Source of the DNA: Torpedo marmorata
Taxonomy: Eukaryota
DNA: 64,000 nucleotides
Assembly: GCA_977017645.1 (NCBI GenBank)
Contig: OZ360220.1
Location: forward strand, 311,240,001-311,304,000
Direction of reading: 5' to 3'
The notes beneath the pieces are model-generated. The model ran no database searches, was not told where the DNA came from, and worked only from the letters and a program-made list of their open reading frames with translations. Shown here one piece after another: positions 2,427-61,598 of this stretch. The translations under genes were made by a program, and so were the position numbers. Within the stretch, counting starts at the first letter, position 1. Each line of letters begins with the position of its first letter.

Positions 2427-3659
2427 TTAACATCTAGAAAGACAATCAGCAATTACATTATCTTTCCCTTTTATATGTGTTATTACCAAATGATATTCTT
2501 GCAAAATTAGACTCCAATTCAACAACCGTCGATTCTTATTTTTCATTTTACAAAGAAAAACCAATGGATTATGGTCAGTATACACTATGAGTGGTTTTTG
2601 AGCTGTACAGATATAAACATCAAAGTGTTGTAGAGCCAACACAAGAGCCAATAACTCTTTTTCTATGGTGGAATAATTCCTTTGATGATCATTGAACTTC
2701 TTCGAGAAGTAGGATACCGGATGGTCAATGTCCTCTTCGTTCTTCTTCTGTAACAGCACCGCGCCCACAGCTTCATCGCTGGCATCCACGGCTAAAGAAA
2801 ACGGCTGTTCTAAATTAGGTGTCTTAAGCACAGGTTGGTGGCATAACATAGCTTTCAATTTGACAAATGCTTCCTGACAACCTGTCGACCATACAAATTT
2901 TTCTTTCTTTCTAAGCAAATTTGTGAGAGGGAGCGCAAGATCAGCAAAGTTTTTACAGAACTTGCGGTAGTAGCCAATCATTCCCAGGAACCTCCTCAGA
3001 GTTTTCTTACCAGTTGGAACAGGGAACTCGGAAATAGTCACAACCTTTTCCTCTACTGGCGCCAACTGCCCCTGTCCTACTACATAACCCAGATAAATAA
3101 CAGTAGCATGTCCAAACTCACTTTTACTTAAATTAACTGTGAGATTTGCTTTGGACAGTCGTTCGAACAATTGTCTGAGCTCAAAGACATGCTCTTCCCA
3201 GGTCTCACTACTTACAATTAAATCATCAATGTAAACACCTGTGTTTTTCAACCGTTGAATTACTGAATTAATCATTCTCTGAAATGTTCCTGGAGCATTC
3301 TTCATACCAAAAGGCATAACATTATACTCATACAGCCCAAAAGGTGTTACGAATGCAGAAATCTCCCTAGCACTTTTTGTCAAAGGAACACACCAGTACC
3401 CTTTTAATAAGTCAATTTTTGTAAGAAATTTGGCCTTCCCCACCTTTTCTATACAATCGTCTATTCTAGGAATAGAATAAGCATCTGTCTTTGTTACAGC
3501 ATTTACTTTCCTATAATCAGTGCAAAACTTAACCGTTCCATCAGGGTTAGGCACTAAAACACAAGGGGAACTCCAATTGGAAGTTGACTTTCGAATGATA
3601 TTGTTCTTTACCATGTAGTCAATTTCCTGATCTACCAGTTTGCACTTTTCCGCATTGAT
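2427..3659 (-). pseudogene. Gypsy reverse transcriptase-RNase H
   Basis: Motifs WSSPCVLV, CTDYRKVN, KIDLLKGYW, MPFGMKNAP, YIDD, and RNase H DAS...YSTIEKELLA...TDHNPL...NVIADCLSR. Confidence 0.93.
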
Positions 3660-5141
3660 TCAATATGGATGCTGTTTTATCGGTCTTGCATCTCCTACAT
3701 CCACATCATGATAAGCGATGGAAATTTTCTGAGGCACATCGGGAAATAAATTTATAAATTTTAAAAATAACTGACTCATCTCTTCCTTTTCTGAAGTTTT
3801 CAGATGAGCCAACTTTGTCTCCAGATTGCACAAAATCATGGAATTTTCTAACCTCCGGCTTATCAATTTCTGTGTCCCATGACCCTCTCTGAAACTGGTT
3901 TCATCTGTCTCCTCCTTACCCTGATTAATAACCAGTACCTCTGGTAAATTTTCAGTCCCTTTTTGCGGCACCTGTTCAAAATATGGCTTAATCATATTCA
4001 CATGACAGACCTGTGTGTCTCGTCTGCGATTAGGTGTTTCTATGACATAAGTGACATCATTAATTTTTGACTTAACTCTATAGGGTCCTGAAAATCTAGC
4101 CCTAAGAGGATTTGAATGGATGGGAAACAGAACTAATACGTTCTCACCAGGTTTAAAAGTTCTCATCTTAGCCTTTCGATCATACCAAACCTTCATTCTC
4201 TGTTGAGTGGCCTTTAAATTCTCCTTTGCCATCTCACAAGCCCTATGCAACCGATCCTTAAATTTGGAAACATAATCTAACAGATTTAAATGCACATCAC
4301 TATTAATCCACTGTTCTTTTAATAATCTTAAAGGACTTCTCACCTCATATCCGAAAACTAACTCGAATGGACTAAAACCAAGTGATTCTTGGACAGACTC
4401 CCTTGCTGCAAATAACAACAAATGAACCCCCTCATCCCAATCCTTTTCCTTCTCACAACAATAGGTTCTAATCATGTTTTTCAAAGTCGAATGGAACCTC
4501 TCCAAGGCCCCTTCACTTTCTGGATGGTACGCAGAGGATACAATCTGTTTAACTCTCAGTCCATCACCCACTTGTTGGAAAACGCCTGACATGAAATTAT
4601 TGCCCTGATCTGATTGAATTTCCCTTGGCAAACCTACCAAGGTGAAAAACTTTACCATAGCCTTTACAATTGACTTTGCTTTAATGTTTCTCAGAGGAAT
4701 GGCCTCTGGAAATCTGGTGGCTGCACACATAATTGTTAACAAACACTCATTCCTCGCTTTGGTTTTGGGCAATGGGCCAACACAGTCCACAATCACTCTC
4801 GAGAAAGGCTCACTGAAAGCAGGGATAGGTTGCAAGGGTGCCACCGGGGGATCCTGATTAGGTGTACCCACCACCTGACAAGTGTGACAGGCCCGGCAAA
4901 ACCTTACAACCTCCCTTCTCAAACTGGGCCAATAAAATTGTTTCATTATCTTCCTTATAGTTTTCTTCACCCCGAGGTGACCACCTAAGGGTGTACTATG
5001 AGCCAAAGTTATTATTGCATCCCTATATGCTTTAGGGATCACAACCTGCTGCACTACTGCCCATTCTTCATTGGCAGGAACATCACATGGTCTCCACTTT
5101 CTCATCAACACCCCATCTTTTTCATAATAACCCACTGGCAC
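3660..5141 (-). pseudogene. Gypsy integrase (HHCC plus DDE), upstream of RT
   Basis: AHSTPLGGHLG...CHTC zinc finger; VDCVGP, SDQG and ERFHSTLK core; GPY-like FSGPY. In-frame stops at 3660 and 5142. Confidence 0.92.
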
Positions 5142-5450
5142 TTAGTTAATCTCCTCTTCAGAGAGAACCTTATCCCTCACCTCAGCAAGATCAGGATCGT
5201 CCTTTTGCCTTGCTATTAGCTCCTGTCGGGATAGTGACAAATCTGTGCCTTTAGGTGTCTTATCAGTGGATGGGTGTAACAAAGGAGATTGCTCAACCTT
5301 TTCCAGGTGTTCTTGATTATCACTGACTTTTTCTTTCACCAAGTTATTTTCCACTGCTTTCTCTACAGTGACATTTTTCTTAGACATGGCCCTGGTTATG
5401 ACACATGCCGGATAAATATCAGAGTCTTTCTCTGACTTATCAATGACTGG

Positions 5451-5873
5451 CTAAGTGGTCATTCGCACTGCAGGAACTACTTTACCCTTGGCCAAGTCAT
5501 TGCCTAGCAACAGTGAGACTCCTTCTACTGGCAATTCTGATCTCACTCCTATTGTAACTGGTCCTTCCACCAAGTCTGAGTCCAATACTATTTTGTGCAA
5601 AGGAATGGACTCAACATCACCCCCAATTCCTTTAATTAAATTTATGTCACCGGTATCAGTAGCTTCACAAAATTCCAAGACACTATCTAACACAAGTGAC
5701 TGAGCAGCTCCAGTATCTCGCAAGATTTTCACTGGAACTTGTTTTGATCCTGCCTTAACTGAAACAAAACCATCAGTCACAAAAGGTTTAAATACATCTC
5801 TAACTTTGTCAGTAAATTTATCTTCTTCCTGGGTGTTATGCCTCTTCTCACTCTGAATACAAGCATTAGGCAT
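5451..5873 (-). pseudogene. Gypsy aspartic protease
   Basis: ILRDTGA active site and LLLGNDL. Confidence 0.88.
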
Positions 5874-5899
5874 TGCATCCTTTTCTCTCTTCTTTTTCC

Positions 5900-7097
5900 A
5901 ACACTGGACAACTTGCTAGCATATGACCAGCCTTCCTACAGTAGTGGCAAATGGGACCCGAATGGTTTTCCCTTTTCCACTTTCCTTCATCCCTTTCCTT
6001 AACACCACTTCCAAATTTACTTTCCACTTGCTTGTGATTATCCAGTGACCTTTTGGAAAATTCTACCTAACGTCCACTTAGGCTTGTGGGTTAAAGCATA
6101 TTCATCTGCTAACTTAGCTGAATTTTGCCAAGTTTTCACCTCCTTTTCATCTAAGTATGCCTTAATATCCTCAGGAACACACCTTTTTATCTCCTCGATT
6201 ATTATCAATTCTCTCAATTGATTGTAATCATTGTTTACTGCCTTAGATGTGCACCACCTGTCAAAACACACAACCTTTTCAAAGGCAAACTCTGTGTAAG
6301 ATTGGGTTGCTGATCTTTTAAAATTTCTAAACTTCTGTCTATAAGCCTCTGGAACTAACTTATAAGCCTGGAGTATAGCCTTTTTCACCGTTTCATAATC
6401 AGCAGCTTGCTCCGTGGTAAGAGTAGAATAAGCTTGCTGAGATTTTCCTTTTATTACACTTTGTAACATAAGAGACCATTGGTCTTGTGGCCATTTTAAT
6501 TTCACAGCCACCTTCTCAAAATGCTGGAAGTACTTATCTATTTCTGCCTCCTCAAATGGAGGAACCAACCTAACTTCTGCACTAGCCAAAAACCCCACAA
6601 CTGGATGACGAATTTGATCTTGGTGCTCTTCTTGTCTCCCCTCATTTTCCAACTTTATCTTTTCCAGCATATATCTCCTATTCCTCTCATCGTTCTCGTA
6701 TCTCTTTAGTTCCAATTCCGTGTCTAATTTCTTTTTTTCCAGTTCCAATTCCAATTTCTTTTGTTCCCTGTCTGCCTCCAATTCTAATTTCTTTTGTTCC
6801 CTGGCTGCCTCCAATTCTAATTTCTTTTGTTCCCTGGCTGCCTCCAATTCCAATTTCTTTAGTTCCAACTGTATGTTTTCAGAAGGTTTACCCTTGGGAA
6901 ACTGCTCTAACATGCTCTCCTCAAATTTTTTTTCTTTTATATAGTATTAGACAATTTTTCTCCCGATCTCTGCCTTTTTCATTGATGATTTTACTGAAGC
7001 AATGCCCAACCCTGTTGCTATAGCCACTAACTGTTCCTTTTTCTCCTTTTTTTCAAGTATCAGGTTCAGGTGATTCCAAAAATTTTCCTACATCCAT
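5900..7097 (-). pseudogene. Gmr1-like gag (coiled coil, SCAN-like capsid domain, CCHC knuckle), frameshifted
   Basis: ATG at 7097. LELEAAREQKK repeats. PEAYRQKFR...LRELIIIEE SCAN-like motifs. CHYCRKAGHMLASC at about 5908-5950. Confidence 0.85.
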
Positions 7098-42329: not shown

Positions 42330-42498
42330 TGTTATGTATACGCCTACAGGCGTATGACGTCATCACATCAACGTGATGACGTTCTGACTGATATATACTG
42401 TGTGGTGGGAGAACCATTTTCAGATTTGTATTAAATGACTAACAAAGCATCATGCCTTTGTCTGCAGTGTATTTCTTAACATAGAATACATGACAGAT

Positions 42499-42511
42499 TG
42501 GCGACGAGGAT
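42499..42511 (+). promoter_or_regulatory. Primer-binding site, tRNA-Ser(GCT)
   Basis: TGGCGACGAGGAT, 3 nt after the 5' LTR. Confidence 0.85.
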
Positions 42512-42659
42512 TCAAACGGACCTCCCCTGGGCTCCAGTTCTTGGAGTGAAGACTTAAAAAGGAATGTTTGCAGAATTGGCAGGAAGCCCAGAATATGTTT
42601 TTGTAAACAATAGATAAGGAAGCTTATCAGAAAGCTAAAGAAGACGACAAAAACTCAGA

Positions 42660-45600
42660 ATGGCTGAAGCACCGTTTGGAAAGTTCGTGGACTCCGAAGA
42701 AAACTGGTATGACTATGTAGAGCGATTTGATCATCACTGTCTTCCCTATAATATTACTGAGACTCCGCCATTCAACCGAAAACGATCGCTATTTCTAAGC
42801 CAGATGGGAAGTAAGACATTTCAACTGGTAAAATCTTTAATAGCACCTGAAAGACCAGGAACAAAAAGTTATGCAGAGTTGTGTGGTATAATAGGGGCAC
42901 ATCTAAGCCCCAAACCACCTGTAATGGCAGAAAGACAAAGATTTTATTTCAGAAAACAGAACAGGCGAATCAGTAAGCGAATTTTTGGCTGAATTACGTA
43001 AACTTTCACAACATTGTGAGTTTGGTGAATTCTTAACCGAAGCCTTAAGAGACCGATTAGTTATGGGTTTAGCAGACCACAGTGCCAGACAACGATTACT
43101 AAGTCAAAAACAAGTAACACTTGATTCAGCATATGATACAGCCTTGGGTTTCGAAATGGCCGATAATAACTTGGACATTAGCCAAGGCGATCCGCTAGTG
43201 GTGGGCAGATTTTACCGCCAAGAATGCTTTCGCTGCAGGAAACGCAATCACAGTCCTGATAATTGTTATTTTAAAAGATCAAAATGCCATCTGTGTGATA
43301 AACAGGGTCACATCAGATCCAAATGTCCAAGAAACAAAGGTAAAAAGGATAGAAAGAAAGGACTGAAATATGGAAAGCATTCACCCAGAGTAAGGGCGGT
43401 GGAAGAGAAGGATGAAAATACCAGCACCAGCACCAAAACAAACGACTCAGAAGAAGACAAAACAGTGCAAGTCATGTATGTTCGCGGATTGAACAATAGA
43501 AAAATTGGAATTCTACATCGAAGTGAAAATTAATAACAAACCTATTCGAATGGAGTTGGACACAGGGGCAGCAGTGTCGTTAATGCCACTATATTTAAAA
43601 AGACGACTGCTACCCCACCTCACCATTAAAGAGGTCGACACGGTGTTAAAAACAGTTACGGGGGAGAAGGTCAAGGTGTTTGGAAAAGTCAACATAAACG
43701 TGAAATATAAAGATCAAACACTGAAAAGATTAACCCTCTACATCGTTGACACCAAGGGGCCCGCGCTGTTCGGAAGGAACTGGCTGTCACACATTCAACT
43801 AGACTGGATGGAAATTGGATCCATAATGAACTTAGGCCTGGAAGATAAGGCCAAGCAAGATAAGGCCAAGCAAGAACTTGAGCCAGTTCTCAAGAAATAC
43901 CAGACGGTTTTTGAAAAAAACCTGGGAAAAATCCAAGGAGTCCAGGCAAAATTACACCTGAAGTCAGAGGTGGAACCAAAGTTCTTTAAACCCAGAACAG
44001 TACCATTTGCAATAAAAGAAAAAATTGAATCAGAACTCCAGAGATTGGAAAAAGACGGAATACTGGAAAGAATCCAATACAGCGATTGGGCAGCACCCAT
44101 CGTGCCAGTGCGCAAAGCCAAAGGAGAAATCCGAATTTGTGGTGACTACAAAGTCACCATTAACCAAGCGTTGCAAATACCGGAACATCCTATGCCTAAA
44201 GCAGAAGAATTATTCCAAGCCCTGAACGGAGGAAAGAAATTTACAAAGCTGGACTTATCACAAGCATACCAGCAAATAGAACTGGATGAAGACTCAAAAA
44301 ATATGTGGCAATCAATACTCACTTAGGGTTATTCACCTATACCCGAATGCCATATGGGATATCAGCAGCCCCGGCAATATTTCAAGCAACCATGGACAAA
44401 TTATTACATGGCATTAATGTAGGATGTTACCTCGATGATATTATAATTACAGGCCAGGACGACGCTGAACACCTATCCAACCTAGAAAAAGTCCTAACGC
44501 GATTGCAACAAGCAAACGTCCGTCTGCGCTGAGACAAGTGTGTATTTATGGTACCTTCCATAACATATTTAGGCTTTACAATTAACAGTGAAGGAGTCCG
44601 AATGGACACCGCAGGTACTGAAGCTGTCCGCAGAGCACCCTATCACACAAATTGCGCCGAATTGCAGTCGTTCCTGGGTTTGGTTAACCATTATAAAAAG
44701 CACATCCCAAATATGTCAACTCTATGCAGCCCTCTTAACCAATTATTGAGAAAAGACCAAAAATGGTGCTGGAATAAAGAGACTAGTCACGTGGTGGATC
44801 GCTTAAAAGAACTATTAACGTCATGCGACAATGTTCTCGTCCACTACCACCCAGGAAAAGAAGTGACTCTTGCGGTGGATGCTTCACCAGTAGGATTAGG
44901 AGCAGTGTTGTTACAGATAACAGAAAAAGGAGAACAACCGGTTGCTTATGCCTCCCAGTCTTTGACGCCTTGTGAACGTAATTATGCACAACTGGAAAAA
45001 GAAGGGCTGGCCATAATATTTGGTGTCAAACGATTCCACCAATACTTATATGGCAGGAAATTTACCTTAGTAACAGACAACAAACCACTAAGTTTGATTC
45101 TAGGCCCTAAAAAGGGGATACCAGTGCTAGCTGCAACAAGAATTCAAAGGTGGGCCATGATGCTCGCCGCGTATAATTACGATTTGAAACATAAACCAGC
45201 AACACAGAACAACCATGCTGATGCTCTGTCTCACTTACCACTACCAGAAACTGAACAAAAAGACGAGATAATTAAATGGACGGCGGAAGCTACAGCTATT
45301 AATCAAGAACAACTTCACCGCTTACCAATTACGGCAAAGACGATCAGCAAAGAGGTACGGAAAGAAGCTACACTATCAAAAGTCCTGTACTTCATATTAA
45401 ATGGATGGCCCGAGGCCAAAGCTATTTCTGAAGAGCTAAGACCTTATTATACACGACGGCAGGAGATCAATTGAAGAAGGTTGTTTATTGTGGGGAACCA
45501 GAACAATCATCCCTACAAACTGGCAAACGGCCATGTTATCCGAACTCCATAACAACCACCCCGGGATGGTTCGGATGAAGGCATTGGGACGTATGCATGT

Positions 45601-45702
45601 CTGGTGGCCCTCAATAGGCATTGATATTGAACAAACAGTAAGAAGATGTGGCATTTGTCAAGACATGCAACCCAAAGCTCCTCAAGCCGAAGCTAATCCA
45701 TG
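42660..45702 (+). pseudogene. Mag gag-PR-RT-RH and integrase N-terminus (frameshifted)
   Basis: CFRCRKRNHSPDNC, CHLCDKQGHIRSKC, MELDTGA, WAAPIV, CGDYK, YLDD, VDASPVG, YAQLEKE, LHNNHPG...CGIC. Confidence 0.92.
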
Positions 45703-46350
45703 TATTACGGTGACTTCGATCCAACAATAGTCACCTGGAGGCTAAGTGAGATACTTGTCTTTGACGCGTTTTAATTAATTTACTAACAAAGTCCAATATG
45801 TTCAAAACCTTTATTTACATAAGTGACTTGCAGTAATCTTCAATGACTTTAATATAAACAGTTCTTGTAAACGATGTATGATGAGTTCCTTTAAATAATT
45901 CTTTAAACAATTCCAAAACTATATGAAACACTGTAGAACGATGTAAAAGTTATAAAAACGATATAAAAACGGTCAATAAAGATGTGGAGACCTCACTCAC
46001 CCTCCAAACATCTTATTCCTTTCCTTTTTTCTATCTCTATTCTTGATTTGCGCATGCCCATTAGCTCCTAAACCACTGCGCATCCTACCCCGCGCATACT
46101 ACATTTCACAGACTGCAACGCGCACAATGACGTCACTCCACACTGCGCACGCGCCCGTCGGCACTCCTGCGCATGCGCAGAGCAAAGAACGGGCCGACGA
46201 CGGCCTACAGAACAACGCGAGCGCTCCATGGCCCGACGTGGCCTCGGAGCGCTCCGAGGACGGCCAACAGAACAACGCGAGCGCTCCAAGGCCCGACGAG
46301 ACATCGGAGCGCCGCAACAACGGTAAGTTAACGAGCCTATGGCTCTTACA
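45703..46350 (-). repeat. 3' LTR of the BEL/Pao element
   Basis: Minus strand TGTAAG...CGTAATA; CpG-rich U3 with a 60-bp tandem repeat; AATAAA. Confidence 0.92.
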
Positions 46351-46554
46351 CCGGCCCCTAATTATTATAATTAGATGTAATGTCTTGAATAATAATTACA
46401 CTATAAATTATAAATAACAATAACCATAACATTCAAAACAATACAAATCTTCTTTCTTCCTTCTTCATAAATCTAGAGTTTACCATAACTCTGATTCAAC
46501 AAAAGTCTGTAACCTGTGAAATATACAACAACAAATAAAGTCAGTTTATATTTA

Positions 46555-46745
46555 TCAAAGTTCCTCTGTCTCCAACAAAAGACAGACCTTGTTAATAGGT
46601 CTGTTTAGAAAACCAATCTTAGTTTTAATTCACACTTGACGCACAAGTCCTCTTTGTCTTGAAAAGTCTCAATAATTTTTTTTTTTAAGTAACCAGGAGT
46701 TTCTTGAAGTTGAATTATCCATAATAATCACAATGTCTCTTTAAA
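46555..46745 (-). pseudogene. Relic of the BEL integrase C-terminal tail
   Basis: Broken frames read DIVIIMDNSTSRNSWLL..IIETF..KRGLVRQV*IKTKIGFLNRPINKVCLLLE, the typical BEL/Pao pol C-terminus. Confidence 0.75.
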
Positions 46746-46776
46746 GTTCTTTTATCTTCAAATCTGAGTTAAAACG

Positions 46777-49700
46777 TCAATCAGTAAACCTCAAATCTTC
46801 TTCAGACAAAATAGATACAGTTTTCCTTTTGAATTTAACATGAGGCACTTCTTCAGCATGTCGTTTCACTTTATTCCTTTCTTCAGTATTCCACTTCTCA
46901 TGTGAAGAATTTAAACTCTTAGAATTAGAATTTGAATATTTATCTGATCCTTTCGATTTTAAACAGGTCTGTTTAACCACTCTGGTTTCTATCGCTCTTT
47001 CCTGCAATTCTAAATCCAATTTTGCAACTTTCAAATCAGTCTCAGCTCCTTCCGAGAAATTAATAATTTGATCTGAAGTCAAAATATCATGTGATACATG
47101 GATATTTCCATTGTCAATCCTGTTGCGGCAAACTTGAAACTTTTTAATTTCTTCATCTTGTTTGTTACATTTCTGCAATGCAATATCACATTCTTTCTGC
47201 ATTGTTAATTGTTGAACATTCAATTTACATTCTTGATTGGTTTTTAAAGTCAACTTTTTTGAGTTATTAACCAATAACTTGTTCTCTTTTAAAACATTAA
47301 TCTCTTCCTCCAACCTTTTACATTTTGATAATGCTGAATCTCTTTCCTCAATAACTGTATTCATTTCTTCAGCAGTTATTCTTTTCTTCCGCTTTCTGAC
47401 TTTGCGAGTTTTACTTACAATTAAATCCTTTTGTTTACTGTTTTCTTGATTATCTAATATTTCCAATTCTCCTTTCAACATTTTGTTCTCTGGATTCAAT
47501 TGCATTAAATTATCATTCACATTATTCTTTATTCCATCAGCACAATTTTCTGTGTTTTCCAGTTTTACATCACATTGCAATATTTCTTCATTAGCTTTGT
47601 CTGTTGTAATCTCTGAACTACAAAATCTACATTCAGATTTGTTTTCAGTCACTTGTTTTATTCCTGTATTTGATTCAATTACACATGAATGATCAATAGT
47701 ATTATTTGCAATATCTTCTAATACTTCACTTTCATCCATTTCTGACGAAATTGATTCCTTCAATGTTGTTTTAAATACCATTGATTTATTTTCACATTGA
47801 TCTGTTTTCTTTTCTTCAAAAGTGATTTTCTTATTCACAGTTTTTTGCTCTTCGCTTAACTCTTCAACTTTCTCAACCGAAATTCTATTAATATTTATCG
47901 CTACCTGTTCCTGAGCAATATCATTATTTCTTTCCATTGGTCCATTGATTGCCCAACCAAGCATGGTTCTAATAGCGTAAGGTCCATTCCTTTTACTCTC
48001 TATTACTTCTTTTGGTACCAAAACCTTTGGCACATCTGAACCAATCAGCATTTCTATCTCAGAATTAATTTCAGGTAAATATACCTTCCACAGATAAGCT
48101 AAATGATGAATATCCCTTTGATGAGGAATATTTCCTTCATTCACAGGCATCGTTTTCTGAGTATATACACTTGGAAGATCACAAAATTTTTTGTCATCCA
48201 ATCCAGCAACCTCTAAGCCTGAAACAATGTTAGTTTCAACAACCTTTTCTTGTCCCATGGTTTTTAACATAATTCTTGATCTTTTTCCTTGAATATTAAG
48301 TTTATTCATTAGTCCTTCCGTGCAAAAAGATGCAGTGCTGCCTGGGTCTAGAAATGCATATGTTTTTACTATTACATCCCCTTTCTTGGCCTTGACTTGT
48401 ACAGGCACTATTGAAAGTTTGCAGTTATCCACACCGGCCCCAGTAAGACCACTTGTCTGAACCGAGGTTATAACATTATTTTCTGTTGTTTCCTTTGTTT
48501 CTGTTTGCTCCTTTTCCAATTCCTTGTTTCTGTTATGGATATGCAAAATTCTAGGATGTTTCAAATTGCATATGTTACAATTAATTCGCTTCTCGCAGTT
48601 TTTACTGATGTGCCCTTTACACAGACAGCTAAAACATATTCCATTTTCCTTTAAGAAAGCGATCTTTTCCTTATGTTCCTTCTTTTCCAATCCTAAACAC
48701 ATTTCTAAAGTATGTCCACCTTTACAGAACAAACAACTCTTTTTATTAGGCAAACTTTCCTTTTCCTTATTTATAACTGACACATTAGTAGCAAATGTAC
48801 TCCTTTTCACTTTCGGACTAGACAGTGTGTTAAACTTCCTTACATCTTTGCCCATTGAATTATCTCTGGCATTTCCATATAGTGGATCTGTTTCAACGTA
48901 CACCCGTCGTTCAAGAAAATTTACCAAATCCTTTAAGGTAGTTTTTCGACCGTAATCTACTTGTAAATCACAAGCCAAATCTCTCCATCTATCCCATAAC
49001 TTGTAAGGTAATTTTTCTAAGATGATTCGCATATTACTATGTACTTCAAGCTCACGAATATTATCGATTTCTTCCATAGCATTACAACATCCTCTTAAAA
49101 ACAAAGTATATTCTTGCAGAGCCTTTACATCATTTTGTTTTATTGATGTCCATTTAAGAGCTTTATCCATATAAGCTAAAGCAATTCGATGTTTGTTGCC
49201 AAAATATTGTTCCAATAAAGCCTTAGCTTTGTCTAATCCTCTTTTTGAAGACATTTGTTTACAACTCTTTACCAGTTCTTTTGGATGTCCCTTTGTGAAC
49301 ATTTCCAAATAATAAAGACATTTATCACGATCTTGGCATTTATCTTCAATATTGCGTTTGAAAGATCTCATAAATGATTGATATTGAAGTGGATCACCAT
49401 CAAAAGTTTGTATCTCTTTCTTGGGTAAAGAAGAGAGAGACTGTAACTGAAACAATGATGCAGCAGTTTCATTCTGTCTTTCCTTGGATGACAATACATT
49501 GCTCTGTTCACCGTCTCTTGTTGCATGTAATGTATCTGGAAACCTCACTGGTGTAGTTTCTTCCATATTTCTGATGCTTGACTCACATAACAAAGAAGCT
49601 ACTTCGTTCGACCGAACCCAAGCCGCAGCTTTGCTTTCAGATGTTACTATTGGTACATGTGACTCGATACCAATATGCTCTTGAAAGGTTTGTCCTTGTA

Positions 49701-50637
49701 TATGTAAGTTTTGTATCCTTGGTTCTAAAATATCTATTCTTTTGGTTGGTTTCTTTTCCTGTGACTCCTTTTTTAAATATGACCTTTTATTATCAGACAA
49801 TTTAGATAATTTACTGCTAGCACCAGATACCATTGAGCCTTTTATTGCTTTCTTTTTTGCCTTGGCAATAGCAATGTTTGCTTCCAGCTCCTGCTGTTCT
49901 TTTATCTGCCTTAGCTGCTCTTTCTCTTGTCTTAGCTGCTCCATTAGCTGCTTCTCATTTTGTCTTAGCTGCTCCTTTAGCTGTTTCTCATTTTGTCTTA
50001 GCTGCTCCTCCTCTTGTCTTAGCTGCTCCTTTAGCTGCTCCTCCTTTTGTCTTAGCTGCTCCTTTAGCTGCTCCTCCTTTTGTTTTATCTGCTCCTCCTT
50101 TTGTTCTAAAATATGTTTCTCCTTAAGCGTTTTTTGTTGTGCAAAAAGAGCGGCCAAGTCAACTTCAATCTTTGTACGTGACGATGCAGAACTTGAAGTA
50201 CGAGAAACTCTGGAGCTCGAACCAGAACTTCTTTTGCTTCTCCTGCTTTCAGCATTTGAGACACTGTCACTTGCTTGTATTTCGTCCTGCAGTTCATATG
50301 TTGTCTTCATACTTACCTCTTTATCCAATTCGAATTGTATATCCTTTGCATCTTCAACCACTTCAATTTCTTCATCATTTGTTGACACAATTTCAGCCAT
50401 TTCCATTTTATCTTCTTGTTCAACTAATGAAGCTGCCTCTTCATCCTTTGCCAGCTTCAATCTTTCGATAAGAACCTTTTTATTTCCACTTATGTCCTTT
50501 TTCAGTCGCTTCAATTCTTCTTTAATATCCGAGACCTTCATGTCTTCAATACGTTGGTCCTCAACCGCAACATCAACGGTTGCTGCGTCAGCTGCTGATA
50601 CATCAGTAGATGCTGTATCAGAGGCTGCTGCGGCCAT
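46777..50637 (-). CDS. Intact chimeric BEL polyprotein: SAP domain, coiled coil, gag, triple zinc knuckle, protease, MIPOL1-like coiled coil
   Basis: Uninterrupted ORF with likely ATG at 50637 (aaaATGGcc). FDGDPLQY...F gag core; CLFCKGGH...C, CFSCLCKGH...C, CNICNLKH...LH knuckles; AFLDPGS protease. Confidence 0.88.
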   Translation of the reverse strand: MAAAASDTASTDVSAADAATVDVAVEDQRIEDMKVSDIKEELKRLKKDISGNKKVLIERLKLAKDEEAASLVEQEDKMEMAEIVSTNDEEIEVVEDAKDIQFELDKEVSMKTTYELQDEIQASDSVSNAESRRSKRSSGSSSRVSRTSSSASSRTKIEVDLAALFAQQKTLKEKHILEQKEEQIKQKEEQLKEQLRQKEEQLKEQLRQEEEQLRQNEKQLKEQLRQNEKQLMEQLRQEKEQLRQIKEQQELEANIAIAKAKKKAIKGSMVSGASSKLSKLSDNKRSYLKKESQEKKPTKRIDILEPRIQNLHIQGQTFQEHIGIESHVPIVTSESKAAAWVRSNEVASLLCESSIRNMEETTPVRFPDTLHATRDGEQSNVLSSKERQNETAASLFQLQSLSSLPKKEIQTFDGDPLQYQSFMRSFKRNIEDKCQDRDKCLYYLEMFTKGHPKELVKSCKQMSSKRGLDKAKALLEQYFGNKHRIALAYMDKALKWTSIKQNDVKALQEYTLFLRGCCNAMEEIDNIRELEVHSNMRIILEKLPYKLWDRWRDLACDLQVDYGRKTTLKDLVNFLERRVYVETDPLYGNARDNSMGKDVRKFNTLSSPKVKRSTFATNVSVINKEKESLPNKKSCLFCKGGHTLEMCLGLEKKEHKEKIAFLKENGICFSCLCKGHISKNCEKRINCNICNLKHPRILHIHNRNKELEKEQTETKETTENNVITSVQTSGLTGAGVDNCKLSIVPVQVKAKKGDVIVKTYAFLDPGSTASFCTEGLMNKLNIQGKRSRIMLKTMGQEKVVETNIVSGLEVAGLDDKKFCDLPSVYTQKTMPVNEGNIPHQRDIHHLAYLWKVYLPEINSEIEMLIGSDVPKVLVPKEVIESKRNGPYAIRTMLGWAINGPMERNNDIAQEQVAININRISVEKVEELSEEQKTVNKKITFEEKKTDQCENKSMVFKTTLKESISSEMDESEVLEDIANNTIDHSCVIESNTGIKQVTENKSECRFCSSEITTDKANEEILQCDVKLENTENCADGIKNNVNDNLMQLNPENKMLKGELEILDNQENSKQKDLIVSKTRKVRKRKKRITAEEMNTVIEERDSALSKCKRLEEEINVLKENKLLVNNSKKLTLKTNQECKLNVQQLTMQKECDIALQKCNKQDEEIKKFQVCRNRIDNGNIHVSHDILTSDQIINFSEGAETDLKVAKLDLELQERAIETRVVKQTCLKSKGSDKYSNSNSKSLNSSHEKWNTEERNKVKRHAEEVPHVKFKRKTVSILSEEDLRFTD

Positions 50638-51072
50638 TTTACTCGTCTTGTTCCTCTTTCCTTCAAGCATACACAACACTAGCCAAACAACAGTCCCCAA
50701 TGGACCAGCGGCAGCAATTCCAATCTGTGTTCTTACTTGCTAAAGATACACAGAAGGAGTCCACAGACTTATGCCTACCACTTCAAATGACTGTAATGTG
50801 CTGCAATCCACAAACGAGTTTCAACCACAACATCCGTCAACAATATCTCTAATTTTCCAAAAATAGTTTCTCCAACGTATTTATAGGACACTTTACTATA
50901 AGATTTGAAGCTTTAAATCCCTCTCTGGCTGTTATTCATGGCAGATGGATGTGGATTACAAACTGCCCCCAACTCGAGGCATCTCCAAGATAGCCACCAT
51001 TTTATATCAGTCCAAAGCACAGAGAGATTATTCTATCTTCTTTCTTTCAAACTTCTGTTCCAAACAGCCAGC

Positions 51073-51083
51073 TCTTTATTGAC
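51073..51083 (-). promoter_or_regulatory. Putative self-priming primer-binding site (GTCAATAAAGA)
   Basis: Starts 2 nt after the 5' LTR, has no TGG, and is the exact complement of the LTR 11-mer at 51355-51365. Confidence 0.65.
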
Positions 51084-51085
51084 TA

Positions 51086-51726
51086 TATTACGGTGACTTC
51101 GATCCAACAATAGTCACCTGGAGGCTAAGTGAGATACTTGTCTTTGACGCGTTTTAATTAATTTACTAACAAAGTCCAATATGTTCAAAACCTTTATTTA
51201 CATAAGTGACTTGCAGTAATCTTCAATGACTTTAATATAAACAGTTCTTGTAAACGATGTATGATGAGTTCCTTTAAATAATTCTTTAAACAATTCCAAA
51301 ACGATATGAAACACTGTAGAACGATGTAAAAGTTATAAAAACGATAAAAAAACGGTCAATAAAGATGTGGAGACCTCCCTCACCCTCCAAACATCTTATT
51401 CCTTTCGTTTTTTCTATCTCTATTCTTGATTTGCGCATGCCCATTAGCTCCTAAACCACTGCGCATCCTACCCCGTGCATACTACATTTCCCAGACTGCA
51501 ACGCGCACAATGACGTCACTGCGCACGTGCCCGTCGGTACTCCTGCGCATGCGCAGAGCAAAGAACGGGCCGACGACGGCCTACAGAACAACGCGAGCGC
51601 TCCATGGCCCGACGTGGCCTCGGAGCGCTCCGAGGACGGCCTACAGAACAACGCGAGCGCTCCAAGGCCCGACGAGACATCGGAGCGCCGCAACAACGGT
51701 AAGTTAACGAGCCTACGGCTCTTACA
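51086..51726 (-). repeat. 5' LTR of the BEL/Pao element
   Basis: Copy of 45703-46350, flanked by TSD CCATG at 51727-51731. Confidence 0.92.
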
Positions 51727-52760
51727 CCATGGAAATGGCCATCGCAACCATGGCACAGAATTCACATTGATTTCGCTGGTCCATTTATGGGAGAAAACTT
51801 CCTCATTGTTGTCGATGCACACTCTAAATGGCCACTGGTATCCCACAGGAAAAAAACAACAACAGACTAGACCATTGAAAGACTACGAAGTATATTTGCG
51901 TTATATGGATTGCCTATTGAACTCGTTTCCGATAATGGTCCACAATTTGTATCGGATGCTTTTAAAGTATTCCTACGTAATAATAATATACGACATGTCT
52001 TATCTTCACCCTACCACCCCAGCACTAATGGAGAAGCTGAACGTTTTGTGCAGACTTTCAAAAAAGCCATGAAAACTAAAAAACTCCTAAACGCATCATG
52101 GAATCACAAAAATCGCAGATTTCCTATTAGGATATAGAAACACGCCGCACTTTACAACCAAAAGAACACCGGCTGAATTAATGTTTGGACGTAACTTAAG
52201 AACAAGACTTTCCACAGTACATCCGAACAACGGCCTTCGCATACAGCAATCCACGTCTCCAAGTAAACCTACCAGATCTCTAGAAGCGGGAGAGCGAGTA
52301 CTGGTACGGGATTACCGAGACTCCAAAGAGCCGTGGATAAGAGGGGTTATTCTTAAAAAACTAAGTCCCTGTTCTATGGAAACGACACATCGACCAGTTA
52401 AGAGCAGTAGATGATCCTATGGCCATGCCTTCGGCTCAAGATCCCGATGAGCTTCCAGATGAAATTCCCTGGGCTCCAGAAATATCCGTGAGAAGGGAGA
52501 CCCCTTCTCAACCAAGTAGCCCTCAACAGACCCCTCCTCAACCAAGAGGCCCTCAACAGACCAGTCCTCTTCAACAACCCAGTCCTATACAACAGCCGAG
52601 TGAGGTTCACCAAAGATCAAGTTCACAGTCCTTGCCACCAACCGAGGTACCACACCAAAAGGCGAAGAGTCCGCAAAATATCCCGACAGAGTCGACCTCT
52701 CTGAGACGATCAAAACGGGAAAAACGTCCGCCAGAATGACTGAAAGACTATGTTCAGTAA
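51727..52760 (+). pseudogene. Mag integrase core and C-terminus (frameshifted)
   Basis: PWKWPSQPWHRIHIDFAGPF resumes across the BEL insertion; LVSDNGPQF, PYHPSTNGEAERFVQTFK. Confidence 0.9.
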
Positions 52761-52887
52761 TTCAACATTTTATCATTTTTATACTTACATTACATTGTAA
52801 TTGTAATCACCATTCGTCTAGAGGCACCATGTATTACGCTTAAATACTGCACCCACACATGGTTATTGCAGTTTATTATAAATACTG

Positions 52888-52937
<50 letters not shown>
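52888..52937. repeat. (CA)n(TA)n microsatellite in the Mag 3' UTR
   Basis: Read directly from the sequence. Confidence 0.9.
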
Positions 52938-52941
<4 letters not shown>

Positions 52942-53819
52942 CAAACATTTATTTTGTGGGGGGGGGAAAGAGTGTTATGTATACGCCTACAGGCGTATGA
53001 CGTCATCACGTCAACGTGATGACATTCTGACTGATATATACTGTGTGTGGTGGGAGAACCATTTTCAGATTTGTATTAAACGACTAACGAAGCATCATGC
53101 CTTTATCTGCAGTGTATTTCTTAACATAGAATACATGACAGCTTCCATACCAATTTATTATTTGTACAAGGATTTGTGGAGCAGACTTGCTTTTTAGGTG
53201 CACGGAGGTTATCAGCCCTCACTTCCTCTGGACTCTGCGAGGCCTTCTGATGTATCTTATCCCCCAAAAATTCCCCTTAACACTTTCTTGTTCTGTGTTC
53301 TCTTTTATATCTCTTCCCTTTTTATTTTCTCCTTTCTACTTTTTTTTTTTAGGTTAGTTCAGTGGCGGATAGTTCTGGGGAGGACGTCTCCTTGCTCACA
53401 GCTTCTACACGGCCCACAATTCGCCTCTTTTCTAAGGCAAGTTCAGTGGCGGGCACAGCCCACGAATGGTGGCCTACACCTCACAATGTGGTGGGCATGT
53501 CCCACCGTGGCAGCCTACAACTCAGTGTGGCGGGTACAACCCACTGTGGCAGCCTACTGTTCACCCTAGTGGGGCTAGTGGCGGCCTACAGCTCCTGATT
53601 CGCATAATTTTTTATTTAAAAAAATAAAACTCTTCCCTTCTCTTATTCTCTACTTAGCTTACAACCCCTTAAATTTTAATGTATGTCTCCCAGCCATTCA
53701 TTCCTTAACTCCACGCCTGATTTTTTAAATTCTCAATTATACATGTCGCAGTCGCGTACTTACCTTTGTCGGGAGGAGGAGAGTGAGAGTGTCAGGATCA
53801 CCCGTGTGGCAGTGAGCCA

Positions 53820-57800: not shown

Positions 57801-58422
57801 TATAAGTAACGGTGACTTCGCTCCACCAATAGTCACCTGGAGGCTAAGTGTGGTCCTTGCTTTTGACGCGTTTTAATTAATTTACTAACAAAGTCCAGTA
57901 TGTTCAAAACCTTTATTTTCACACATGACTTGCAGTAATCTTCAATGACTTTAATATAGACAGTTCTTGTAAACGATGTATGATGAGTTCCTTTAAATAG
58001 TTCTTTAAACAATTCCAAAACGATATGAAAACACTGTAGAACGATGTAAAAGTTATAAAACGATATAAAACGGTCAATAAAGATGTGGAGACCAGACTCA
58101 CCCTCCTACATCTCTATCCTTTCTTTGTTCTCCCTCTCTAATGGCTCTGCGCATCCTACCCCGCGCATACTACAACTCCCAGCCTCCCACGCGCACAATG
58201 ACGTCACTCCATACTGCGCATGCGCCCGTCGGCACTCCCGCGCATGCGCATATCAAAGAACGGGCCGACGACGGCCCACAGAACAACGCAAGCGCTCCAA
58301 GGCCCGACGTGGCCTCAGAGCGCTCCGAGGACGGCCTGGTGAACAACGCGAGCGCTCCAAGGCCCGACTAGACATCGGAGCGCCGCAACAACGGTAAGTT
58401 AAACGAGCCTACGGCTCTTACA
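57801..58422 (-). repeat. Solo LTR related to the BEL/Pao element at 45703-51726
   Basis: Diverged copy of the BEL LTR; TSD CCCAC (57796-57800, 58423-58427). Confidence 0.88.
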
Positions 58423-60099: not shown

Positions 60100-61598
60100 A
60101 ATAAGTAAACAGAAAAGCACACTACTCACATGTGCCCGACAAGCTTGTTTCGTGGATCTTTCCACTCTTCAGGGGTAGTTGCTGTAAGGGATACCTCGGT
60201 TATATAGTAAGGGGTCTGGTATGTGAGTCAAATTAGGTGTTAATGGTAGACAGTGGTGTTTTGTTCAATTGGTGCCGAGTATTTAATTGCTGCATAGCAA
60301 TGCTTTGTTTCTGTGTGGACATGAAGCTCCTAGTTCATTACGCTTGTTTAGGGATGATATGTTGGTGTTGCAAATAATTAGAAGCTTTTCTTTCAAGCAG
60401 AGGTTGCATCGCTTGCTAGAACTATTGTATGCAGGGTTTGATGAAAGTATGTTCCATGAGAGGGAATAGTCTATGTTTTCGTCCTTTAGTTTCCAAATAT
60501 GTTTACTGAGTTCCGTTGCGTTCCTGTGTTTCTTGTGGCGGAATGAGGCAGTGTGGTTATTATATCTTGTTTTGAACGTGTTTTCTGTTAGTCCAATATA
60601 TGTTTCGGTGGTATTGTTGTCCTTGCGGGTTACAGTGGCTTGATAGATTACCGATGATTGAAGGCACTTGCCGTTGAGTGGGCATTTTGCCTTAGGTCGG
60701 CAGTTACACATTTGATTCCTTGTTTCGTTAATGTTATGATTTTTTAGTTGGTATAAGATACGCTTATTGTGGTTGTCGATTATCTGCGTGGTGTTGTTCA
60801 TGCAGCTGTAACTGATTTTGACGGTGTTACGGTTGAGGATCTTGTGTAGGCAGTGGTCATCCGGGAAGTGTTTATCTATGAGTCGGAGGAATATTTGTCC
60901 AATTTTGGTTTTGACATTCATACTGTAGGGTGGGTTGTACCATAGTATGTTGTTTCTTTTCCGATTTCTGTGCCTTGTATTTGTTGCGGGTTCGTAGTGG
61001 AGTGTGTATTTGTATCCATTTTGATCGAGTGCCTTCTGGTAGGGTGGTGCGGCTCTGTCAAATGATGCTCTGTCAGATGAAAGTAATGACAGTCTTCTAT
61101 TTATACCGGCAGGTATATTTTTTGTTATGGTGGGTGGGTGGTTACTTTCACGGTGTACGTATTTAAGCTGGGTATTAGGTTTTGTGTATGGCTGGTAGGT
61201 GCTATTGTTTAAATTGAACGTTACGTCCAAGAAGTCGGTAACCTTTTTATTGGCGGCAATGGTAATTCGTAGTTCATGGTTTTTGAAGATTCGGCAAATG
61301 TTCTTCTTTATATTCTCAGTGTCTCTTGGTGATACATGGGTAGTTGCTAGCCCGTCATCTCTGTACAGCCCGACATTGATGTTTAGATCTTGTAGCTAGG
61401 ATAGAAGGTAACTTCCCACGAGTTCGCAGGTCTCTGCTCCATCATAACTGCCCATGGTCACGTCAAACGCTGTATTGCCTTTCTTCTGCCATGATTGTTG
61501 GTTATGCGTGAGTATCGATTTTTTTGCGTGGATGATAATGTTGCGCTCCTGGTCGGATATGTTGTTGTATGCTGATGCGAAATCCAGTGCTTTGTTTA
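60100..61598 (-). mobile_element. 5'-truncated Penelope-like element, Hydra-type (RT plus C-terminal GIY-YIG), inserted in (TA)n
   Basis: [14 protein letters not shown] and LYRDDGL RT; CNCRPKAKC (CxCx5C) linker; VIY...YIG endonuclease; KRCNLCLKEK. One premature stop at 61396. (TA)n on both sides. Confidence 0.85.
60135..60175 (-). ncRNA. Minimal type I hammerhead ribozyme
   Basis: CCC CTGAAGA GTGGA-AAGA-TCCAC GAAA C-AAGCTT-G TC GGG: complete catalytic core, 5-bp stem II, palindromic loop III. Confidence 0.82.

Follow-up and report, generated by a model that had tools for sequence, protein, structure and literature searches.

Introduction

Acutely transforming retroviruses of the gag-onc type are helper-dependent, with host cDNA in place of pol and an in-frame fusion to gag. 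LTR retrotransposons also acquire host mRNA. The available text of Tan et al. (2016, PMC5131818) describes LTR-mediated retrocopies in which partial host mRNAs, from several parents per element, replace an internal part of the ORF, with short inserts or microsimilarity at the joints, and which pass through later rounds as non-autonomous elements; one of them, in a mosquito, is BEL-flanked. Maize Bs1, as presented in the same text, is a non-autonomous LTR element that carries pieces of three unlinked host genes. Non-colinear exon junctions usually come from back-splicing, and the circRFWD2 pseudogenes of the mouse, with 33 high-confidence copies, carry such a back-spliced junction and are LTR-associated (MMERVK10C-int in the figure legend); how the RNA is written back is left open and called mysterious (Dong et al., 2016, PMC4897178). 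In the accessible part of a 2025 review, pseudogenes derived from circular RNA are still called rare (PMC12747553).

The window considered here, a 64,000-nucleotide stretch of the Torpedo marmorata genome, contains a non-autonomous BEL element whose Pol region is replaced by intronless, in-frame sequence from BRCA1, MIPOL1 and Elongin A, probably gained by template switches, with a back-spliced circle as the likely template of the MIPOL1 part; the probability of this reading is put at about 0.8. The element shares with gag-onc retroviruses the dependence on a helper, the host cDNA in place of pol and the in-frame fusion to gag, while it differs in that no envelope gene is seen, amplification is in the germline and the captured protein is not under purifying selection. 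As in the retrocopies of Tan et al., the Pol region is replaced by mRNA of several host genes; those retrocopies, as far as the available text goes, are single or few loci and form no long-lived, high-copy lineage with a maintained frame, and the word "circular" is absent from the main text (PMC5131818). Bs1 is a plant element, for which the available text mentions no back-splice junction. The mouse circRFWD2 pseudogenes are alike in their non-colinear exon junction from back-spliced RNA, in having many copies per circle and in their LTR association, but number 33 against at least 13,689 in the ray, a comparison that rests on the main text of PMC4897178 and that amplification inside one mouse element may narrow. 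The ray genome shows the carrier with its LTRs and target duplications, its autonomous relatives and where the insert begins and ends; the predicted circle is joined in frame to Gag-protease and to two more genes, and young copies exist. Each ingredient thus has a precedent, in chimeric LTR retrocopies and in circRFWD2 pseudogenes, and what is unusual is the scale, the three-gene in-frame fusion and the readable history. A literature search, mostly at the level of abstracts and with few subscription papers, returned no account of this element or of such scale.

Organization of the element

The element is 6,024 bp long, with LTRs that are 98.4% alike and a 5-bp target duplication, and sits inside the integrase region of a Gypsy-type element (Table 1). 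It has the two LTRs, polypurine tract and target-site duplication of the BEL/Pao group and a BEL-type Gag-protease, and its kin carry PF05380 and DUF5641 and have the order PR-RT-RH-IN. It is a non-autonomous derivative of BEL/Pao, in which coding sequence for RT, RNase H and integrase is absent. The LTR ends are TG...TA in young copies of the family and TG...CA in old ones.

Table 1. Features of the element and its surroundings in the window (positions count from the first letter of the window; L198 is an autonomous copy)
Feature	Position	Strand	Basis or remark
Target-site duplication, 5 bp	45698..45702 and 51727-51731	.	Target is the + strand Gypsy-type integrase region; flanking Gypsy domains
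3' LTR, 648 bp	45703..46350	-	631/641 aligned bases identical to 5' LTR
Polypurine-tract-like stretch adjoining 3' LTR	46351..46366	-	Same motif precedes 3' LTR in other copies
Broken BEL integrase C-terminal tail, outside long frame	46555..46739	-	L198 comparison
Elongin A piece 2, start of host exon C41:39005550; long frame ends here	46765..46820	-	86% to host exon
Elongin A piece 1, 3' part of large host exon	46827..46978	-	81% to host exon; gene named from older copies
MIPOL1 exon Eb remnant	46978..47044	-	88% to host; 81-nt in-frame deletion joins Eb to Ea
MIPOL1 exon Ea, downstream of exon Eg	47049..47122	-	Host exon comparison
Non-colinear junction of Eg end and Ea start, predicted back-splice junction	47122..47123	-	24/40 bases, ungapped, in this diverged copy
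MIPOL1 exons Ee (part), Ef and Eg, intronless	47123..47427	-	82% to host; host exons 29 kb and 78 kb apart
BRCA1 piece, spliced across host exon junction	47428..47849	-	74% to host exons
BEL gag and protease, from first ATG	47845..50637	-	92% aa identity to L198 polyprotein, residues 1-965
SAP domain, N-terminus, common to autonomous elements	50455..50550	-	PF02037, E 1.6e-7; in L198 too
Single frame, 1,320 codons: SAP-Gag-PR-BRCA1-MIPOL1-Elongin A	46777..50739	-	ORF and translation
5' LTR, 641 bp	51086..51726	-	LTR pair alignment

In the 1,320-codon frame, Pfam matches are confined to a SAP domain and a weak aspartyl protease, with no RT, RNase H or integrase. This agrees with the preliminary description of the locus, which had reported a frame that stays open past the protease without RT motifs and a broken integrase tail beyond it; about 360 codons follow the protease, and the tail is found at 46555-46739. 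The stretch 46353-46739 is 92% identical to L198, where the matching part is DUF5641. About 1.1 kb of host cargo occupies the place of the RT, RNase H and integrase, and the window copy retains shortened versions of all three host pieces. The 81-nt in-frame deletion between Ea and Eb is present in 43 of 89 copies.

The SAP domain of the autonomous BEL family has a tentative likeness to scaffold attachment factor B (Atlas score 0.88, below 0.9) and may be an older host capture.

The MIPOL1 segment

MIPOL1-like sequence had been placed at 47130..47510 in the preliminary description, which was made without database searches. The peptides quoted there are present in the ORF and the identification is right, while the boundaries are not: MIPOL1 sequence spans 46978-47427, the part from 47428 to 47510 is derived from BRCA1, and the interval ends 7 bases short of the key junction at 47123/47122. 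In a protein search, MIPOL1 heads the 100 proteins that match the segment at E ≤ 0.01 among 573 candidates; the best match is sawshark MIPOL1 (E 3.5e-22, 57% identity), and all but four of the named proteins among the 100 are labelled MIPOL1. Pfam and PDB give no MIPOL1 match, and a search of 1.84 billion representative sequences gives 38 unnamed hits, none at 1e-30.

The likeness had been judged closer than that between generic coiled coils, and DNA identity of 79-88% to the MIPOL1 exons of the same genome bears this out. Weak matches to vimentin (E 0.2) are what a generic coiled coil within a normal BEL polyprotein would offer, and an assembly artefact might also be considered; neither is tenable in practice against 93-96% DNA identity of old copies to the host exons, the thousands of dispersed copies, the bridging of the junction in seven of eight public runs and the absence of the segment from all 16 BEL loci with RNase H.

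The host MIPOL1 gene is on contig C40, where seven exons, Ea-Eg, all bounded by AG/GT, lie between a large exon and exon Eh. Their lengths are 136, 106, 130, 34, 171, 108 and 95 nt, 780 nt in all, and the set begins and ends in the same phase, with one turn free of stops in the frame of the gene. Each exon has one perfect match in a 319-kb host stretch without N, and this stretch holds no tandem duplication of Ea-Eg. In the element the exon order, relative to the host gene, is Ee-Ef-Eg-Ea-Eb-Ec; the exon junctions are spanned without introns, and the donor end of Eg is joined to the acceptor end of Ea exactly, to the base. Old copies have Ee from base 48, Ef, Eg, Ea, Eb and Ec to base 18, a total of 587 nt that is mostly 93-96% identical to the host exons (90% in L033). 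Across the 40-mer centered on the Eg/Ea junction, at least 35 of 40 bases match in 28 of 29 old copies and the central 16 are exact in 19 of the 29, while the linear next exon matches only 3-5 of the 20 bases in the right half; 30 young copies match at 22-25 of 40 positions, ungapped. A shark MIPOL1 query gives many matches in which residues 443-572 precede residues 313-408, in scrambled order (66 scored of 45,287 candidates).

Of the characters by which high-confidence circRNA-derived pseudogenes are recognized (Dong et al., 2016), two are found here: a non-colinear exon junction at splice sites and only circle-resident exons, with neither introns nor a poly(A) tail. The MIPOL1 template is likely to have been a back-spliced circular RNA, a predicted rather than observed circle of 780 nt. 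The preliminary description had proposed that a host mRNA fragment was captured in frame with gag-protease; the segment is indeed spliced, in frame and in the place of Pol, but its template was probably this circle and not linear mRNA. No linear processed MIPOL1 copy with downstream exons appears among 88 scored matches, two of which extend to such exons and both of which are the host gene. In the available part of one source, an exonic circ-Mipol1 is listed for mouse (PMC9888537).

The same splice-exact junction would arise from a linear RNA with repeated exons, produced by trans-splicing of two MIPOL1 pre-mRNAs or from a tandem duplication of Ea-Eg since lost, with the rest of the capture unchanged, and such an origin is in keeping with an insert of less than one turn that repeats no base of the circle. 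It is nevertheless unlikely, since the present host gene has every exon only once, the insert lies wholly within Ea-Eg and back-splicing is the usual source of junctions of this kind (PMC4897178). A backward jump of reverse transcriptase on linear MIPOL1 mRNA is more improbable still. The Eg/Ea junction does have 3 bases of microhomology on the linear mRNA, and the element has undergone several other switches; however, the jump would have to coincide with two exon boundaries, and on the 1,554 nt of spliced host sequence, where microhomology of at least 3 bases would allow 16,894 backward jumps, only nine of these join an exon end to an exon start. Moreover, the other capture joints fall within exons, and of the two AGs in a tandem acceptor the element junction has the upstream one.

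In one run guessed to be RNA, single contigs leave the element at the junction and enter the host linear neighbours, on either side (judged by eye), as expected if these splice sites are used. Two runs guessed to be RNA contain diverged contigs that bridge the junction, which demonstrate neither transcription nor a host circle.

The BRCA1 and Elongin A segments

The single host fragment of the preliminary description was incomplete, since BRCA1 and Elongin A are also fused beside MIPOL1. BRCA1 adjoins MIPOL1 upstream (protein match E 2.7e-75, 80%), with up to four host exons from contig C61 joined in order at 90-98% identity. Elongin A lies downstream, with up to five exons from contig C41 joined in order at about 91-98%. 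Both pieces are colinear, with no back-splice junction in either, and the best protein matches of both are electric-ray proteins. Between the two LTRs, host mRNA pieces take the place of an internal part of the ORF, as in LTR-mediated retrocopies (Tan et al., 2016). The RING, BRCT and TFIIS-N domains and complete Elongin A domains are absent from young cargo.

Nine bases are kept both by the element and by the electric-ray BRCA1 protein but have been lost from the BRCA1 gene of this genome, so the capture of BRCA1 likely predates the loss in the host. The first 185 residues of the electric-ray BRCA1 database model P0142 resemble, by eye, retrotransposon gag; the model is probably a mis-joined annotation.

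The pol/BRCA1, BRCA1/MIPOL1, MIPOL1/ELOA, pol/ELOA and ELOA/BRCA1 joints all read through in the host frame in those copies that were translated. Microhomology at the BRCA1/MIPOL1 joint is limited to about 2-4 bases. The MIPOL1/ELOA joint has a short spacer that resembles an old LTR start: it is nearly the same as the first 17 LTR bases of the same copy (L098:6115-6131 and L103:6132-6148, with 16/17 in L103), as if the switch from MIPOL1 to Elongin A had passed through the start of the LTR. Of 25 extra Elongin A matches, 11 loci were followed, and nine of these belong to a side branch (L157-L167) that has a second Elongin A piece ahead of BRCA1, in frame at both ends.

Copies, autonomous relatives and lineage

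The 381-bp interval of the preliminary description gives 351 candidates in its own genome, and the 40 that were scored are 98-100% identical. The genomic copies carrying the insert, whose counting had been proposed there, were estimated from a 19-letter motif across Eg/Ea, which has 6,743 + 6,946 = 13,689 exact matches genome-wide (control, 0 + 0), a floor because the motif fits 34 of the 70 copies examined, some of which served in its design. The count exceeds that of mouse circRFWD2 by a factor of about 400, and, provided that most copies are close to full length, the family would make up about 1% of the 6.2-Gb genome. Contigs that bridge the junction by at least 31 bases occur in seven of eight public runs, under six of seven organism labels and in seven of eight studies, one of the runs possibly being the source of the assembly. 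Among young copies, 15 of 19 have a 5-bp target duplication and 10 of 19 have frames of at least 1,270 codons; old copies were taken as the best MIPOL1 hits and young ones as the best hits to the window, so that neither sample is random.

Tandem arrays of the young element are seen at C1:1498499-1518373 (five junctions with a spacing of 4,964 bases), at C11:269574038-269601926 and at L130.

A search of the genome with PF05380 gives 6,618 candidates, of which 150 were scored. Eleven of the 16 BEL loci examined have frames of 2,018-2,134 codons and share the LTR, gag and protease with the element. In L198 the domain order is DUF1759, RVT_1, PF05380, rve and DUF5641, and from the 5' LTR to the protease this copy is 95% identical to the window element. 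None of the 16 BEL loci with RNase H carries BRCA1, MIPOL1 or Elongin A cargo, so the segment is foreign to autonomous BEL polyproteins; had it been standard there, the preliminary description would have been refuted.

Over 72 copies the two comparisons run in opposite directions: the less MIPOL1 resembles the host (96% down to about 80% identity), the more gag-protease resembles L198 (73% up to about 95%). A 70-row tree, from which L130, L221 and L226 were left out, is a ladder that starts from a star of old copies, the host among them, and leads to the 20 young rows, which form one group (98/94). The LTR pairs of old copies are about 85-93% alike and those of most young copies 96-100%. Young copies have a longer integrase tail than old ones, at 92% identity to L198, which suggests that the cargo element has recombined with the autonomous BEL family.

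Codon and indel changes in the cargo

For the window cargo against the host, dN/dS over 378 aligned codons, some of them counted twice at the edges of pieces, is 0.98 with a transition weight of 4 and 0.58 unweighted. Neutral simulation gives 1.18 (0.86-1.61), with 13% of runs as low as the observed value. Eight other young copies, picked for their long frames, have values of 0.86-1.07. No stop occurs in the 378 codons, where 13.7 are expected, and none of 20,000 neutral runs is free of stops. All nine indel classes present in at least eight of 89 copies (one of them a host-side loss) have lengths divisible by three, which holds for 28 of the 79 private indels, the cut at eight copies having been set after the table was seen; in the planned test, indels in at least three copies against private ones, the ratios are 10:7 and 28:51 (Fisher p = 0.10). 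Four recurrent stops, each in at least three copies, are found among the 89, and large in-frame pieces of the cargo have been lost along the lineage. Comparison of young copies in pairs gives a pN/pS of 0.80 in the cargo and of 0.51 in gag. For gag-protease, dN/dS between the window and L198 is 1.11, with no purifying selection visible over this short distance, and 0.41-0.54 for pairs of old copies with the window.

Taken from these codon and indel counts, selection appears to keep the open frame and not the host protein sequence, and a dN/dS close to 1 in an open frame means that no host-protein function is conserved. On its functional side, the analogy that had been drawn with acutely transforming retroviruses finds no support. 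The fusion protein might still serve the element or the host, for example through a coiled-coil tail that aids particle assembly, and this would be compatible with an origin from circular RNA. The frame has been kept through about 20-27% divergence, the MIPOL1 core is still recognizable, the last 12 Elongin A codons have one replacement and four silent changes, and the unweighted dN/dS is the low value given above. Such a function is nonetheless improbable, given the weighted values for the separate pieces (BRCA1 0.86, MIPOL1 1.28 and the Elongin A exon piece 0.93), the proportion of neutral runs that are as low overall, the loss of large in-frame pieces and the domains that young cargo lacks.

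Translation through the cargo might instead protect the RNA from nonsense-mediated decay and keep it available for packaging, and the odds that this explains the selection for an open frame are about even. The young frame stops about 430 bases ahead of the LTR and the integrase tail is out of frame, features that the idea of nonsense-mediated decay does not explain. A structural role for the host-derived tail as the reason for the kept frame has about one chance in five.

Proposed origin

In the proposed scheme, which is drawn from the structure of the copies and follows the model in the available text of Tan et al. (2016, PMC5131818), host RNAs would have been co-packaged in BEL particles and copied by template switching of reverse transcriptase. 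In the direction of minus-strand synthesis, the MIPOL1 circle would have been entered in Ec and left in Ee, so that the 780-nt Ea-Eg circle would have been read for three quarters of a turn. Since the old copies share both end points, the capture of MIPOL1 probably had a single origin. The chimeric product would have kept the LTRs and gag-protease and been mobilized in trans by the autonomous family, and repeated recombination would have brought in fresh gag-protease, LTRs and integrase tail, the cargo being passed on by descent.

The carrier, its autonomous relatives, both end points and graded copies are all in one genome, and together they point to LTR template switching as a route for circular RNA into genomes. 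The MIPOL1 insert would preserve, as a fossil, a germline circular RNA older than the split of several related species. It is also conceivable, though doubtful, that a host circular RNA has become a permanent, translated part of a still-spreading retrotransposon, with the fusion made and its tail replacing Pol as a structural or RNA-protecting module. If true, this would explain the survival of the cargo through the renewal of all other parts, in tens of thousands of copies and several ray species, and might entail small-RNA cross-talk on BRCA1, MIPOL1 and Elongin A. The family is a natural setting in which to test why non-autonomous elements retain long open frames without retaining the protein sequence. 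In annotation its copies will be mistaken for MIPOL1, BRCA1 or Elongin A genes, and they will imitate junction reads of circular RNA.

Other observations

Four cargo copies (L077, L078, L086 and L093, at 64.34-64.50 Mb of C40) lie within introns of the parent MIPOL1 gene, where the genome-wide motif density, which varies by region, would predict about 0.7 in 317 kb. In the window, a third LTR-like copy of the same family, 78-92% alike and apparently solo, is found at 57805-58402. The Gypsy-type element that the BEL element interrupts is decayed and extends over 42330-53144 on the + strand. A further Gypsy-type element occupies 2427-6946 on the - strand, with a SCAN domain upstream and with Pfam integrase hits before RT and RNase H in the frame, an unexpected order. 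On the - strand at 60283-61395, a 370-codon frame resembles what we take to be a Penelope-type RT with a GIY-YIG tail.
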